Assembly (NCBI GenBank): GCA_019057815.1
Contig: JAHLWR010000008.1
Span: 64,001-128,000, forward strand
Source of the DNA: Candidatus Heimdallarchaeota archaeon
GTDB taxonomy: Archaea > Asgardarchaeota > Heimdallarchaeia > Heimdallarchaeales > Heimdallarchaeaceae
DNA: 64,000 nt
Direction: 5' to 3'
In this document: one piece after another, positions 19,601-24,920 of the stretch
Numbering within the stretch: the stretch's first letter is position 1
Layout: each line of letters opens with the position of its first letter
The notes under the pieces: generated by a model
Seen by the model: only the letters and a program-made list of their open reading frames with translations
Told to the model about the DNA's origin: nothing
Databases searched by the model: none
Made by a program: the position numbers and the translations under genes

Positions 19601-21709
19601 TTGAGTAAGTTGATGGAACTGGCAAAATACATTCCTTTTCTTACTTCTACAGATAAGGAGGTTCTAGGAGGGCAACTAAATCCAGATGATTATAGTACTC
19701 TTTATGAGTATTATACTTTTGTAATTGATAATTGGGAATCTATTAATTCAATAGAACTCCCTTCAATTTATCAAGCTATCTTATCTTATGTTTTAACGAT
19801 ATATTTTGATTTTCAAAAATTAGGAGAATTTTACTACAAATATCCAACAATAGAAGTAGCAGCAACTTATTTGAGGATTTTAACAAGACAAAGTCAAAAA
19901 GAGAAAATCGATGAAATCATAAGTAAATTTCCTATAAATGAAATGGTAGAAGCACCAATTTATTCTCAATCAGATTTACTAATTTGGAAAATATATTTCC
20001 ATGTTTATAATCATGATTTCGACAAAGCAAGAGAACTTATCTTAATAGCTGAAAATCTTTTAAACAAGATAAATGAAAAAGAGGAATACTCAATACTATA
20101 CAAACAACAAACATCCCTGCTTTTCTATGTTAAAGCACTACTCTATAATATGACAAAGAAGATTCAACAGTCTCTAATAGATAACATTCAAGGAATTAAA
20201 ATTTTAGAAGAAAGTAAAACCTACGATAGTTTCATTCTTGGAACTTTATATAATATGTATGGTGGTACCTTAATGGGAGCAGGAGACCCTATAGCGAAAG
20301 ACAAATTTAAAACAGGGCTTAGTTACTTTTCTCAAAATAAAATTGAGAGAGGAATGGCAGTATGTCAAGCTAATATTGCGTCATTGTTAATACAAGAAGG
20401 AAGATTTGATGAAGCTTTGAGCTATTTTTATGATTTTGTAGAAATAATGGAAAAATATCAGGATCAAAGAAATATATTAGTGATATTTAATCATATATAT
20501 TCTTGTTTGAAATCATTAGGAAGAATGAACGAAGCTGAAGAATATTTAAACGAAGCATTCAAACGAATGGAGGAGCACAATCTAGAAAATGATGACATAT
20601 TCCTTGACGCTTCTGAATTCTATGCAATCGAGGGAAATTTCAAATTAGCAGAAAAACATTTAGAGAAATATGCTGAGGTATTAAAAGTAAAAGAAGAGGA
20701 AGAAACATTAACAAGTGCAACTTGTTTAATACATAAGGGATTTATTGAGCTAAAAAAGAAAAACATGTATGAATCTGAGCAACATTTACTTGAAGGAATT
20801 CAAATTGCTAAGAATAACCTTTCCGCTCCATTAAGCTTACAAGGTATAATATATCTAATTGAATTATTAATCAGTAAATACCGAACAGAAGAAGATAGTC
20901 TATCAAAACAAAAAATCATAGATGATATTGAATTATATAGTCAAGAGTGTGTAATTCTACTTCGAGAATATAAGTCTAATTTTCAAATGGTAAACTACGA
21001 ACTACTTTTAGCAACAACATATATTTTATCAAGTAAACTTGAACTTGCTTGGGATGTGTTGAAAAGAACATCTCAAGTCTGTAAACAATATAATTTTCAA
21101 AATCAGTTAGAAAAAGTTGAAAAAAATATTAGAATTGTACAAGAACTTAAATCAAATCAGAAAAAGTCTGAATTGGGAAAAGATATAATTAAGATGCGCT
21201 CTGATATTGAGCTCTCAATGGTAGATTATTCTGCAAAAGGAGTCAAAGATATTACTATTCTTACTGAAACGGATGAGAAACCACTACTTATATTTTTATT
21301 AGTTATTCTACCATCTGGTTTACCTTGTTATTCTTACAATTTCAAGACAGATAGAATTAGTGATAATGAAATTCTGATAGCTGGGTTAATAAATGCAATA
21401 CAGAATTTTAGTTCCGAGATATCCTTGAAGAAGGGAGTTTTTAGAATGCTGGAACACTCAGATTACATAGTATTGCTTGAACCTAGAGATAATTTTTCTA
21501 TTGCTATGTTTACAGACAGTTTCTCATATGAACTCAAAAAACATGTACTTGAATTCGCAAACAATGTAGAAAAAATCATTGATATTTTAGCTAAAAAGGA
21601 TTTTGTGAAAGTAGAGGAAGTTGAAGTAATAACAATCAAACTAGACAAGCTGATAAGAGAGATATTTCAATCTACTGAAATACCTATTCTTAATAGTAAA
21701 CACAATTGA
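19601..21709 (+). CDS. TPR-repeat protein with C-terminal longin-like domain
   Basis: TPR helices; C-terminal SGLPCYSYNF / LIAGLINAIQNFSSE. Confidence 0.75.
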   Translation: MSKLMELAKYIPFLTSTDKEVLGGQLNPDDYSTLYEYYTFVIDNWESINSIELPSIYQAILSYVLTIYFDFQKLGEFYYKYPTIEVAATYLRILTRQSQKEKIDEIISKFPINEMVEAPIYSQSDLLIWKIYFHVYNHDFDKARELILIAENLLNKINEKEEYSILYKQQTSLLFYVKALLYNMTKKIQQSLIDNIQGIKILEESKTYDSFILGTLYNMYGGTLMGAGDPIAKDKFKTGLSYFSQNKIERGMAVCQANIASLLIQEGRFDEALSYFYDFVEIMEKYQDQRNILVIFNHIYSCLKSLGRMNEAEEYLNEAFKRMEEHNLENDDIFLDASEFYAIEGNFKLAEKHLEKYAEVLKVKEEEETLTSATCLIHKGFIELKKKNMYESEQHLLEGIQIAKNNLSAPLSLQGIIYLIELLISKYRTEEDSLSKQKIIDDIELYSQECVILLREYKSNFQMVNYELLLATTYILSSKLELAWDVLKRTSQVCKQYNFQNQLEKVEKNIRIVQELKSNQKKSELGKDIIKMRSDIELSMVDYSAKGVKDITILTETDEKPLLIFLLVILPSGLPCYSYNFKTDRISDNEILIAGLINAIQNFSSEISLKKGVFRMLEHSDYIVLLEPRDNFSIAMFTDSFSYELKKHVLEFANNVEKIIDILAKKDFVKVEEVEVITIKLDKLIREIFQSTEIPILNSKHN

Positions 21710-23026
21710 AATACGTTTTTTTTGATTTTCATTTTTCTTTCTTTTTATTTTAACAATGAATTCTTATCAAGTAGCTAGAAAATACTAATTCTTGAGTTAT
21801 AAATTTATATACACTATTACTTTAGGGCAATAACAATGGAACAAGAGAATGATAGATTTTTACTCTCAGATGAAAAACTTCAAACAATCCAAGATTTATT
21901 AAAGGAAAACCAAAGAGATGTTCCAGCTTTTACAGATGAAGGAATATGTGATGAGTTCTATGTTCCTGTCAAAGATGGAGAGTTAAGAGTATTTCATCAC
22001 AAACCTGAAAAAATTGAAGTTAAAAGACCTATACTCTTTCTTCCTGGTTTTACTGCTAATCCTCTAACTTGGGTAGATTTTCATAAAACACACCAAGGTT
22101 TTACAGAGTATTTTTACATTGAGTCACGTGAAAAAAATTCTAGCAGATTAAAGAAGAGCAAAGATACTTTATTTACAGTTGATCAATGTGCTCAAGATTT
22201 ACGAGATGTTATCAAATACCTTGGATTTGCAAATAGAGATTATGTATTACATGGTTCAAGTTATGGAGGAGCTATCGTTTTGCAAAGTCTTATTAGAGAA
22301 TATATTAATCCTCCAACAGCTATTGTTTTTGACCCTATAGCTTTATGGGTTTATGGAGGTCCTATAATACACGCTATAATTCAAATTATTCCACCGAAAA
22401 TATTAGGGAAATTGCGTTTACTTATCACTCATATAGCATTAAGATCTATGAAAAATAAAAATCAAAAGAAAAGGATGATAGAATTTATTAAAGGGGGAGA
22501 TATCAGTAAATTTCAAAAAAGTACAAAACAAAATAGGAAATTTAATATCATCGACAAACTTCAAAAAATCAATAATGAAGTTTTCGTTTTTACTGGACCT
22601 TTGGACAAATATCACCCTAGAATAGCCTATTATAGTTATGCTAAAGAAATACCAAAAGGAAGATTCTTCTTCATGGAAACAGAAGAAAAACAACGACAAC
22701 TCCTTGCTGGGTTAATAGCTACAGCTTTTTCCAAAGTATCAAGTGACGAGGGTGTCCCTCAGATATTACTTCCCTTTGAAATTCCCATAGATAGAAGTAA
22801 AGGGGAAAAATAACAGATTGAATTCTAAAATCTGGTTTACTTATTATTGATTCATTAAAGAAACTGCCAGATATAATTTTTCACTATTGCTATGTTTACA
22901 GAGAGTTTCTCATATGAACTTAAAGAACATGCACTTGAATTCGCAAACAAAGTCGAAAAAGTCATTGATATTTTAGCTAAGAAGGATTTTGTGAAAGCAG
23001 AGGAAGTTGAGGTAATAACAACCAAA
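21498..23026 (+). repeat. Diverged direct repeat, 143 bp (21498-21640 and 22884-23026)
   Basis: Manual alignment: 11 mismatches in 143 nt, no gaps; second copy is a relic of the TPR gene 3' end. Confidence 0.95.
21836..22813 (+). CDS. Alpha/beta hydrolase-fold protein
   Basis: ILFLPGF oxyanion loop, GSSYGG nucleophile elbow. Confidence 0.8.
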   Translation: MEQENDRFLLSDEKLQTIQDLLKENQRDVPAFTDEGICDEFYVPVKDGELRVFHHKPEKIEVKRPILFLPGFTANPLTWVDFHKTHQGFTEYFYIESREKNSSRLKKSKDTLFTVDQCAQDLRDVIKYLGFANRDYVLHGSSYGGAIVLQSLIREYINPPTAIVFDPIALWVYGGPIIHAIIQIIPPKILGKLRLLITHIALRSMKNKNQKKRMIEFIKGGDISKFQKSTKQNRKFNIIDKLQKINNEVFVFTGPLDKYHPRIAYYSYAKEIPKGRFFFMETEEKQRQLLAGLIATAFSKVSSDEGVPQILLPFEIPIDRSKGEK

Positions 23027-23099
23027 TCGACTTATCTTATCGTATTTATTGGATATCTTACTTTGTTATCAACTAGATTATAACTTACAAAACAATTAC

Positions 23100-24326
23100 T
23101 TAACTTCCTAATGCTATAACATTCAAATGATTAACAATAAATTCGATAATTCTTTCCTTGTCTTCTAGTTCCTTTCTATTATTTATTTTCTTGATAAAAG
23201 AATCAAAACCTTTTTCCCATGAAACACGCTTATAAAGCATCCATTCTAAATTTTTAGGTATCACAACAGTTAACACAATATAACTTCTACCTTTATATCG
23301 AATATCTTTTTGTTTCTCATCTTTAATCCAGCTACTAAGAATTAATCCTGTATATCTTTGGTTATATAACATTGGAATAATTGCGGATCCCTCTATGTAT
23401 TCTTGACCTGCACCTAAAGTTGTTATACTCATTAAACTTTGTTTAAACACATAATCTTCCCTATGGTTTTCATCTTCCACAAATTTAAAACCATAAAAAG
23501 TGACTATTGCTGGTCCCTCTAGCTCAAATCGAATCATAGAAAAAGAAATTTCTTTGTTTTCAGTAAGATTTTGAATAACTCTACTCAGAGAAAAAATACA
23601 TTTAGGATCAAGTACACCAGCAAGTAATATTAACGTAACTCCTGTTAATGCAAGTAACCTAGAACTGATGAATAATGCAATTTTTAAATACAAATTATAT
23701 TCAAAATAATCCATAACTCCTTCTATAGCAAATAATAGAAATCCAGAAAGGGATATTATAGCTCCTGAAAAATACATTTTAGATACTTTTTTCTTAACCC
23801 ATAAGCGCTTTTTTGGATGTGAAAATAATGTAGACATTTGGAGCAAAAATAACATCATTAAACACCAACTAGTGATAAGAACCCCAAAAAAAATGTTAGC
23901 TTTAAATTTTATAACATACTCTGTATGTTCAATCCAGAAAAATTTCGCTCCAGTTTCATAGTTATATTGTGATAATAATAAGCTAATTAGGATTATACTA
24001 AAATATGTCATTATTTTCTTATAAGGAGGAAAATAAGAAAAACGTGGAACCATAGTATAAGATGAGAGATTTAGTAAAGCTGCAATAATGATTGTAGAAA
24101 AAAATATAGGCGTTATATAATGTTCATATTTGGATAGATCTTTGATATAGATATAGGCATTAGATGTATATAACCAGAAAGCAACAATGTCTATAGCTAA
24201 AATACCCAAGAAAAATCTTCTCCCTATTCTTTTTTTTAAGATAAAAAAATTGATTACAATGACTACTATAATTAAAAGAGTAGATATAACGAATCCCAAT
24301 AAAAGAAAAAACTCTATAAGATTCAT
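23100..24326 (-). CDS. 7-TM membrane protein fused to a cytoplasmic uDENN/longin-like domain
   Basis: Seven hydrophobic helices from MNLIEFF (ATG 24326), then soluble FSMIRFELEGP..GAGQEYIEG..IPM..D....DIR domain. Confidence 0.6.
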   Translation of the reverse strand: MNLIEFFLLLGFVISTLLIIVVIVINFFILKKRIGRRFFLGILAIDIVAFWLYTSNAYIYIKDLSKYEHYITPIFFSTIIIAALLNLSSYTMVPRFSYFPPYKKIMTYFSIILISLLLSQYNYETGAKFFWIEHTEYVIKFKANIFFGVLITSWCLMMLFLLQMSTLFSHPKKRLWVKKKVSKMYFSGAIISLSGFLLFAIEGVMDYFEYNLYLKIALFISSRLLALTGVTLILLAGVLDPKCIFSLSRVIQNLTENKEISFSMIRFELEGPAIVTFYGFKFVEDENHREDYVFKQSLMSITTLGAGQEYIEGSAIIPMLYNQRYTGLILSSWIKDEKQKDIRYKGRSYIVLTVVIPKNLEWMLYKRVSWEKGFDSFIKKINNRKELEDKERIIEFIVNHLNVIALGS

Positions 24327-24688
24327 TAATACATTAAATATTGTTTTATTATAAAAACACTTTTGCCATAATATCTTAAAAGAAGAAGAATTTGAGTAAA
24401 AATAGTAATTTTGTGGGGTATTACTCTTTGTCATTACTGTAGAAGGAAAAAGAGCATGTATAGCGCTTACTGACCTAATTTCGGTTCATTTAGTTATTAA
24501 TATAAATGAGTTCTTACAATAGACTATTTAACCGAAGTTGGGATAGATTCAGATGCCTCCTCTAAATGATTTAATGCCTTTATTATTATCAGTTTTTCAA
24601 ATTTTCTTAGGAATTGGTTTGTTTACATGGTTAGTAATAGAATATAAAAAGAGTAAATACCAAACAATTAAGTATCTTCTAACTGCAA

Positions 24689-24920
24689 CAACAATTTCCT
24701 GACGCAGTTCAGGTAAACCTGAGCTAGTAGAATACCCTCCAACAAGCCCTTTTTCTATAGCTTCAATTGCACCTTCTTTGATATGGAGAGGAGTGTCAGA
24801 TGTTGGTTTCGCCCAAGACAAAAAGGCTACATCATCAATCGTACTTGACAATCTTGTCATTTCATGAATAGCTGATTTTGGAATTTGCTGAACACGTCTA
24901 GAGAATTTGTTATTTTTCAT
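24689..24920 (-). pseudogene. Truncated class I/II PLP aminotransferase (first ~77 aa only)
   Basis: FSRRV..IPKSAI..TP.HIKE.AIEA..YSTSSGLPELRQEI then unrelated sequence. Confidence 0.8.

Follow-up and report, generated by a model that had tools for sequence, protein, structure and literature searches.

Asgard genomes encode dozens of small GTPases together with longin and roadblock proteins, and the signals that control them and the pairing of regulators with GTPases have yet to be established (PMC10933270). NPRL2-like longins fused to sensors, including fusions to two-component signalling domains, have already been published from Asgard archaea (Liu et al., 10.1101/2020.10.19.343400). A GP motif together with an arginine finger marks the longins of the GTPase-activating proteins (GAPs) FLCN, NPRL2 and SMCR8 and one Asgard longin class, and is reported to be absent from the TRAPP, adaptin and DENND longins (PMC12290439). 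Here we describe a gene of Candidatus Heimdallarchaeota archaeon, a Heimdall-group Asgard archaeon (contig JAHLWR010000008.1 of assembly GCA_019057815.1), that encodes a seven-transmembrane (7TM) module followed by a cytosolic longin domain. The gene lies in a stretch of 64,000 nucleotides, referred to below as the window. The text of Liu et al. and that of PMC12290439 make no mention of a 7TM or transmembrane longin fusion, and no description of such a 7TM-longin fusion in archaea was found in the literature searched.

The 7TM-longin protein was modelled in full length with AlphaFold2 (AF2) on a 26-row alignment (predicted local distance difference test score, pLDDT, 81.9; predicted template modelling score, pTM, 0.77). 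Its chain ends in an alpha/beta domain, residues 259-407 in the model, which opens with ISFSMIRFELEGP. Modelled alone on 47 sequences, the soluble domain reached a pLDDT of 90.5 and showed the longin order b-b-a-b-b-b-a-a. The best match in the VIA structure comparison was the longin of a Lokiarchaeal Roadblock-Longin protein (8yqg_B; Z 12.6, 134 residues, 3.1 A), followed by Lst4 (Z 11.5) and by FLCN in the FLCN-FNIP2-Rag-Ragulator complex (6nzd, Z 11.2); these three leading alignments span 127-135 residues. Npr2, NPRL2 and SMCR8/C9orf72 matched the domain at Z of about 9, and the top ranks of Foldseek were taken by the same longin families. Classic DENN proteins were weaker, with DENND1A and DENND10 at Z 6.7-6.8. 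An earlier note, made from the letters of this DNA alone, had claimed a soluble domain of about 150 residues after the last helix, with a hydrophobic start and an F...GP signature, and had assigned it to the uDENN/longin folds. The domain is present as described, and its fold is that of a longin, with the folliculin/Lst4/NPRL family as best matches; this corresponds to the longin (uDENN) portion of DENN-like GTPase regulators.

The two motifs of GAP longins are found at the expected places. Gly271 is kept in all 23 distinct family members and Pro272 in 17 of them, and the Gly is invariant across 47 module sequences. Arg343 is present in 20 of the 23 members, with Arg in at least 90% of the 47 modules. 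When the module profile was compared by hhalign with Heimdall proteins that are positive for Pfam Folliculin, the probability was 85% (E 5.8e-6, 123 columns). This alignment pairs GP with GP, and Arg343 falls on the Arg that is invariant within the ARGG motif of the Folliculin-type Heimdall longins. Since Pfam Folliculin itself matches no member, the link to the Folliculin family is drawn at the profile-profile level alone. Pfam and NCBIfam returned nothing for 13 longin modules, PF11704 found nothing in this genome, and a PDB sequence search with the module profile gave chance ferritin rows only (E of about 1). On the models and the conservation, we predict that the longin domain, which carries both the GP motif and a conserved Arg, belongs to the folliculin/NPRL2/SMCR8 type.

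The same module is carried by other proteins. In this genome (3.7 Mb, 95% complete) the module profile met nine loci, namely the 7TM protein, two PAS proteins, one receiver protein, one TPR protein, three proteins with an N-terminal module and one weaker match. Across this genome and its relatives the module stands at the C-terminus of PAS, receiver, TPR and single-pass beta-helix proteins. The last of these, found in relatives, look like receptors in build: a signal peptide, an extracellular NosD-like beta-helix, one transmembrane (TM) helix and a longin tail. Because the same module ends PAS, receiver, TPR and beta-helix proteins, its behaviour is that of an output domain in signalling.

A 288-residue protein (locus L026, contig C1, 1105-1968, plus strand) joins a receiver domain (Response_reg, Pfam E 1.3e-16) to the longin module; this fusion implies that the module is controlled by phosphorylation. 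The NosD-like beta-helix proteins are about 595 residues long (locus L012, 127-1926, plus strand, and about 15 relatives, among them P0003, P0005 and P0008). Their TM helix at 413-431 is followed by KKRR, and the build suggests receptors that cross the membrane once and share this output.

The input of the 7TM-longin protein is a bundle of seven helices, which AF2 places at residues 3-30, 36-60, 68-87, 100-119, 145-169, 179-208 and 212-239. A hydropathy scan agrees with these seven helices. Lys and Arg together number 17 on the predicted inner side vs 6 on the outer, which places the N-terminus outside and the C-terminus inside. The hairpin between TM4 and TM5 is formed by the strands FWIEHT and VIKFKA. 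All three elements read earlier from the sequence, that is seven helices, a beta-hairpin FFWIEH..YVIKF between TM4 and TM5 and a DP after TM7, are recovered, with the hairpin strands exactly placed at 130-135 and 138-143 and D240-P241 directly behind the last helix. The well-conserved membrane positions are limited to Trp51 in TM2, one Gly in TM4 and Arg223 in TM7.

Full-length 7TM-longin members were found in about a dozen of 301 sampled Asgard genomes, with up to 5 paralogs per genome. All of them fall within the class of the window's source and most within its order; a large protein library holds about 25 clusters at 50% identity, and the named homologs come from Heimdallarchaeaceae and Kariarchaeaceae metagenome-assembled genomes. 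In a tree of the modules, the 7TM-linked longins form one group (support 91/91), which fits a single fusion. Mean identity within the family is 17% for the membrane part and 27% for the longin part. A faster-diverging input with a kept output is the pattern of sensors.

Neither Pfam nor NCBIfam gave any match for the 7TM-longin protein, and Pfam gave none for any of 26 full-length members. In particular, no transporter or enzyme family was matched by the membrane part in Pfam or NCBIfam (26 members in Pfam). A profile of the TM part alone, run against 83 genomes of the class, found 7TM-longin genes only, with no other output on this membrane module. We regard the membrane module as a sensor-type bundle of seven helices that makes up a family of its own and belongs to no named one.

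In shape the membrane module may resemble prokaryotic 7TM sensors. A shape search of the ESM Atlas gave TM-scores of 0.45-0.53 over 250-275 residues to such sensors with PAS, kinase, GGDEF or LuxR outputs, and HisKA_7TM sensors reached 0.50-0.53 over 269-275 residues. The likeness to HisKA_7TM sensors, whose layout had been named for this protein before, would be one of shape and not of sequence. PF16927 (HisKA_7TM) has no match in the 26 members, nor any family match in this genome or 20 relatives, and hhalign of the membrane module against Asgard HisKA_7TM modules gave a probability of 1.9%. Membership in HisKA_7TM was rejected on these grounds. A feature search of the ESM Atlas with the TM part returned only unnamed Promethearchaeota clusters (0.91-0.92), one of which carries an automatic name from a histidine-kinase 7TM region and is a lead only. 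The shape search also returned a cluster of 376-residue proteins, mostly from Thermoplasmatota, that matches the whole model at TM-scores of 0.59-0.64 over 320 residues. A seven-helix module with an alpha/beta domain may, judging from these models, occur beyond Asgard archaea.

Longin or roadblock dimers bound to a GTPase have been solved in FLCN-FNIP2-Rag, GATOR1-Rag, C9orf72-SMCR8-ARF1 and MglB-MglA. For co-folding, the longin domain was taken twice and combined with residues 1-185, the G domain, of an Arf-type GTPase encoded next to a PAS-longin gene, with GTP and Mg. The score was 0.85, vs 0.02 for the best of 3 controls. Among solved complexes 58 of 80 attained this mark, as did 2 of 110 mismatched pairs. 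The runs share at least 91% of contacts and the partner pLDDT is at least 86. On the longin side the interface comprises positions 13-15 (GP), 41-53, D84 and R86-87 in domain numbering, where R86 is R343; on the GTPase side it comprises 19 and 24 of the P-loop, 38-49 of switch I and 61-81 of switch II. The Pro of the GP motif contacts the switch II residue at the catalytic position. Co-folding with a small GTPase of the genome had been proposed beforehand, and the one Arf-type GTPase tried was docked through its switch regions. At the level of a model this shows that the longin domain keeps a GTPase-docking face; it does not identify that GTPase as the partner.

Arf-family genes are common in this genome, with 41 matches, about ten of which are long Arf-roadblock GTPases and candidate partners. 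Of the nine module genes, two are direct neighbours of Arf-family GTPase genes, which is unlikely by chance (about 0.03, a rough estimate from 2-3% of random positions lying within 1 kb of an Arf-family gene). One, which encodes a 458-residue PAS-longin protein, lies amid a cluster of six small-GTPase genes (locus L035, contig C36, 110500-119500), of which one is Ras-like, four are Arf-type with a roadblock- or longin-like tail (298-318 residues) and one is Rab-like. The order PAS-longin then Arf recurs in another genus. Elsewhere, a tight operon (locus L036, contig C35, 2105-4899, minus strand) consists of two long Arf-type GTPase genes (338 and 335 residues) and then a longin gene, with gaps of a few bases. 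The product of this final gene has 256 residues and starts with a GP-motif longin.

Ten long Arf-type GTPases (from loci L035, L036, L037, L038 and L020) were aligned, and six of them have a His in a D-x-G-G-H motif. This His sits where Arf and Rag carry the catalytic Gln of switch II. The GTPase encoded at 2882-3886 of L036 has degenerate switch motifs.

We propose that the 7TM-longin protein is a dimeric membrane sensor whose paired longin domains have an Arf/Rag-like GTPase as their target and probably serve as its GAP. The seven-helix bundle, family-specific and fast-diverging, would most likely sense a small ligand or the state of the membrane. It would be coupled through the DP hinge and the short helix behind it to the cytosolic longin domain, and two longin domains, so probably a receptor dimer, would make a platform. 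A Rag-like GTPase of the long Arf-plus-roadblock kind would be docked by this platform at its P-loop and at switches I and II, and the platform would most likely accelerate GTP hydrolysis. If it is a GAP, a membrane signal would directly set the on/off state of a small GTPase. What the analysis shows is the gene, its topology, fold and motifs, the output role of the module and, in silico, a compatible surface for docking a GTPase; we infer the identity of the partner, the action as a GAP rather than as a guanine nucleotide exchange factor (GEF) or scaffold, and any ligand. Taken whole, the statement seems to us a little more probable than improbable. That the protein regulates a small GTPase is held likelier than the whole statement, and its parts "GAP" and "ligand-gated" are held less likely. 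A one-chain ligand-gated regulator, that is an archaeal 7TM receptor with a folliculin-type longin tail that switches an Arf/Rag-like GTPase off or on, is a tentative reading that we would sooner doubt than accept.

Several observations weigh against this proposal. No small-GTPase gene was found on the contig of the 7TM-longin gene, none stands beside the orthologs in five other genomes or beside P0040, and no recurrent small-GTPase, roadblock or longin partner occurs near 7TM-longin genes. The claim of the earlier note that the receptor signals to small GTPases is therefore upheld indirectly, by the paralogs beside Arf-like genes and by a co-fold that lays the GP motif and the Arg on the switches, but not by the surroundings of this gene or its checked orthologs. 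Because no GTPase gene adjoins the 7TM-longin gene, the GTPase of the co-fold was chosen by analogy; the co-fold may also pass from likeness to solved complexes alone, and cousins of the true partner pass too. Known longin GAPs all have a second longin subunit, and no gene for one lies near the 7TM-longin gene. The chain ends with the longin, and no DENN, dDENN or family-specific C-terminal domain follows. Of the 23 members, 6 have another residue in place of Pro272 and 3 in place of Arg343, and neither Pfam Folliculin (PF11704) nor NPR2 (PF06218) matches the 7TM-longin protein or the 26 members at E up to 1. The AF2 model has no extracellular domain. Finally, the majority of longin and roadblock platforms work as GEFs or scaffolds and not as GAPs (PMC10933270).

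The last two points also speak for the main rival, a constitutive platform. In it the membrane part is an anchor with no ligand control, and the longin dimer recruits the GTPase or activates it as a GEF or scaffold, as do Ragulator, TRAPP and Mon1-Ccz1. TRAPP, Mon1-Ccz1 and AP sigma subunits do match the longin at Z 7-9.6 in VIA, and the co-fold geometry over the switches suits a GEF as well as a GAP. However, the GP motif with the aligned Arg is reported as specific to GAP longins and is missing from TRAPP, adaptins and DENND (PMC12290439). The joining of the same module to regulated inputs (PAS, receiver, extracellular beta-helix) also argues against an unregulated platform, and a plain anchor needs neither seven helices nor a conserved Trp51, Arg223 and hairpin. 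We consider this reading unlikely, though less so than the two that follow.

The longin could also have nothing to do with GTPases and serve as a regulatory or adaptor domain (SNARE-like, coat-like or a PAS/GAF-like binder) tied to a seven-helix transporter, channel or enzyme. Some longins do work outside GTPase control, such as SNAREs, the SRX domain and coat subunits, and PAS, LuxR-type ligand-binding and GAF domains appear among the weaker VIA matches (Z 6.2-6.5). The lack of a GTPase gene neighbour would agree with such a role. The top structural and profile matches, however, are GTPase-regulating longins, paralogs stand in operons with Arf-like GTPases, and the co-fold interface is built on exactly the conserved GP and Arg positions. 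The membrane part, moreover, is matched by no family of transporters or enzymes in Pfam or NCBIfam. We regard this role as quite improbable.

GPCR ancestry of the membrane module was weighed on a wide VIA search and on Foldseek. The top VIA rows for residues 1-242 are all G-protein-coupled receptors (GPCRs) of classes A, B2, F and T, superposed with seven helices in order at Z 11-13 over 211-232 residues (root mean square deviation 3.4-5.1 A), in a calibration where Z up to about 13 is common among unrelated helical bundles. Foldseek also puts GPCRs first, weakly (E 3e-3 or weaker, TM-scores 0.3-0.5, root mean square deviation 7-11 A). No Pfam 7TM receptor or GPCR family matches the 26 members at E up to 1. 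Thus the GPCR likeness is one of shape only, at the level expected of any seven-helix bundle. True homology with eukaryotic GPCRs is very improbable in our view: GPCRs rank first, and the hairpin in the second outer loop and the short helix after TM7 recall class A receptors, but the superpositions are no better than those of unrelated bundles, no receptor family matches, and the prokaryotic HisKA_7TM-PAS, 7TM-GGDEF and 7TM-LuxR proteins are about equal in shape.

The 7TM-longin gene is real, as had been observed earlier. It is part of a single minus-strand open reading frame (ORF) at 23100-24434 with 444 residues, and the gene is overlapped by no competing ORF of 60 or more residues. Homologs exist at 90% and 44% identity, with about 20 more at 15-27%, and the one at 90% identity is likewise 408 residues long. 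Most of the 23 members begin within a few residues of ATG 24326. The 31 residues upstream of this ATG are about 68% conserved, with radical changes, vs about 89% in TM1, in a relative of 87% identity. ATG 24326 (408 residues) is preferred because of the lengths and starts of the homologs and the weak upstream conservation. The 444-residue reading was rejected as less likely, its extension being poorly conserved and lacking in nearly all homologs. A TATA-like box upstream would imply a leaderless or short-leader mRNA, which at about 30% GC in the window is weak evidence. The coordinates of all features, confirmed by translation, are collected in Table 1.

Table 1. Features of the 7TM-longin gene and its upstream region, in window coordinates
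Feature	Position	Strand	Basis
Gene for the 408-residue 7TM-longin protein	23100..24326	-	Stop codon 23100-23102; ORF, homologs, translation check
Seven-helix membrane module, residues 1-239, N-terminus outside	23610..24326	-	AF2 model, hydropathy, Lys/Arg bias
Trp51 in TM2	24174..24176	-	Top-conserved membrane residue, 22/23 members
Extracellular beta-hairpin between TM4 and TM5, residues 130-143	23898..23939	-	DSSP strands 130-135 and 138-143; translation FWIEHTEYVIKFKA
Arg223 within TM7	23658..23660	-	Kept in 19/23 members
D240-P241 and linker helix 246-256, between TM7 and longin domain	23559..23609	-	AF2 model; Pro241 in 17/23 members
Cytosolic longin domain, residues 259-408, predicted folliculin/NPRL2 type	23103..23552	-	AF2, VIA, Foldseek, hhalign
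GP motif Gly271-Pro272, loop between strands 1 and 2 (261-268, 271-278)	23511..23516	-	Conservation, interface
D341-x-R343, loop between strands 4 and 5; R343 candidate arginine finger	23298..23306	-	Conservation, interface
In-frame upstream extension, 36 codons, probably untranslated	24327..24434	-	Absent in nearly all homologs; about 68% vs about 89% in TM1
TATA-like box TTTATAATAAAA	24344..24355	-	Centre about 24 nt 5' of ATG 24326; read from sequence

The neighbours of the 7TM-longin gene encode an alpha/beta hydrolase, a TPR protein and an S-Me-THD-like protein. The TPR protein (19601-21709, plus strand, 702 residues) has a tail of about 150 residues that looks longin- or roadblock-like and weakly resembles the tails of long Arf GTPases (BLASTP E 0.006). 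This tail was considered as a GP-motif module and rejected, as BLASTP gave E above 2 and the module profile had no match. Shortly downstream of the 7TM-longin gene, about 140 bp at 22886-23025 (plus strand) are about 92% identical to 21506-21645 (plus strand), which is the 3' end of the TPR gene. The repeat, read as a 63-codon ORF fragment (22892-23083), is a partial duplication or a gene remnant. Directly upstream of the 7TM-longin gene lies a 107-codon ORF (24597-24920, minus strand) that is matched by no Pfam family and occurs only once in the genome. The central part of this ORF may resemble an aminotransferase N-terminus.

The 7TM-longin protein names one concrete input-output pair for GTPase control in Asgard archaea, and its longin domain is small and soluble, with G271-P272 and R343 as two obvious targets for mutation. 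If it does act as a GAP, archaea would offer a direct counterpart to the eukaryotic coupling of membrane nutrient sensors to Rag/Arf switches. If it does not, the result would still narrow the range of roles open to the sensor-longin fusions that are widespread in Heimdall archaea. Should one chain also be gated by a ligand, it would be the first case in prokaryotes of a 7TM receptor coupled to a Ras-superfamily switch. The logic in which a membrane sensor controls a longin GAP, known from LYCHOS-GATOR1 and the 7TM-RGS proteins, would then have been present already in the archaea closest to eukaryotes.

Compared with HisKA_7TM proteins (PF16927), the 7TM-longin protein shares the predicted order of a seven-helix input and then a cytosolic output. 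The outputs there are kinases, PAS, GGDEF and LuxR domains; here the module, which has no sequence relation to theirs, was found with a longin output only in the 83 genomes of the class. DENN proteins are built as uDENN-DENN-dDENN, and the core DENN and the dDENN are absent here. The Asgard longins of the FLCN/SMCR8/NPRL2 type (Liu et al.; PMC12290439) have in common with this protein the longin fold, the GP motif between b1 and b2, the aligned Arg and the Heimdall-group lineage. As in the signalling proteins among them, the module stands at the end of the chain, and PAS-, receiver- and TPR-fused copies are present in this genome. The differences are that the input here is a seven-helix membrane module and that Pfam Folliculin and NPR2 do not match.

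The Rag GAPs FLCN-FNIP2 (Lst7-Lst4) and NPRL2-NPRL3 of GATOR1 (6nzd, 6ulg, 4zy8, 7t3b) share with the 7TM-longin protein the fold (Z 9-11.5), the GP motif and the position of the Arg. In the model described here, a longin pair is also predicted to dock in a similar way, over the switches at the nucleotide side of an Arf/Rag-like GTPase. These GAPs are soluble heterodimers with a DENN or other C-terminal domain after the longin. Unlike them, the 7TM-longin protein carries a single longin, lacks a DENN domain, probably forms a homodimer and has its longin covalently joined to a membrane module, and its GAP activity is proposed.

LYCHOS/GPR155 with GATOR1 (PMC11525196; 10.1101/2024.11.21.624772) follows the logic proposed here, in that a GPCR-like seven-helix sensor controls a longin-type Rag GAP. 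There, two distinct proteins provide sensor and GAP, and the former also carries a transporter and a DEP domain; here both are in one chain, and no sequence relation was found. Plants have seven-transmembrane RGS proteins, whose receptor part acts directly on the G protein. Those of Naegleria (PMC9283941) also carry a seven-helix receptor-like module fused directly to a GTPase-inactivating domain, so that no intermediate stands between receptor and G protein. Their GAP is an RGS domain that acts on G-alpha, whereas here it would be a longin with a presumed Arf-family target, and RGS and longin domains are unrelated. LYCHOS with GATOR1 and the 7TM-RGS proteins are, in logic, the closest eukaryotic parallels to the 7TM-longin protein.

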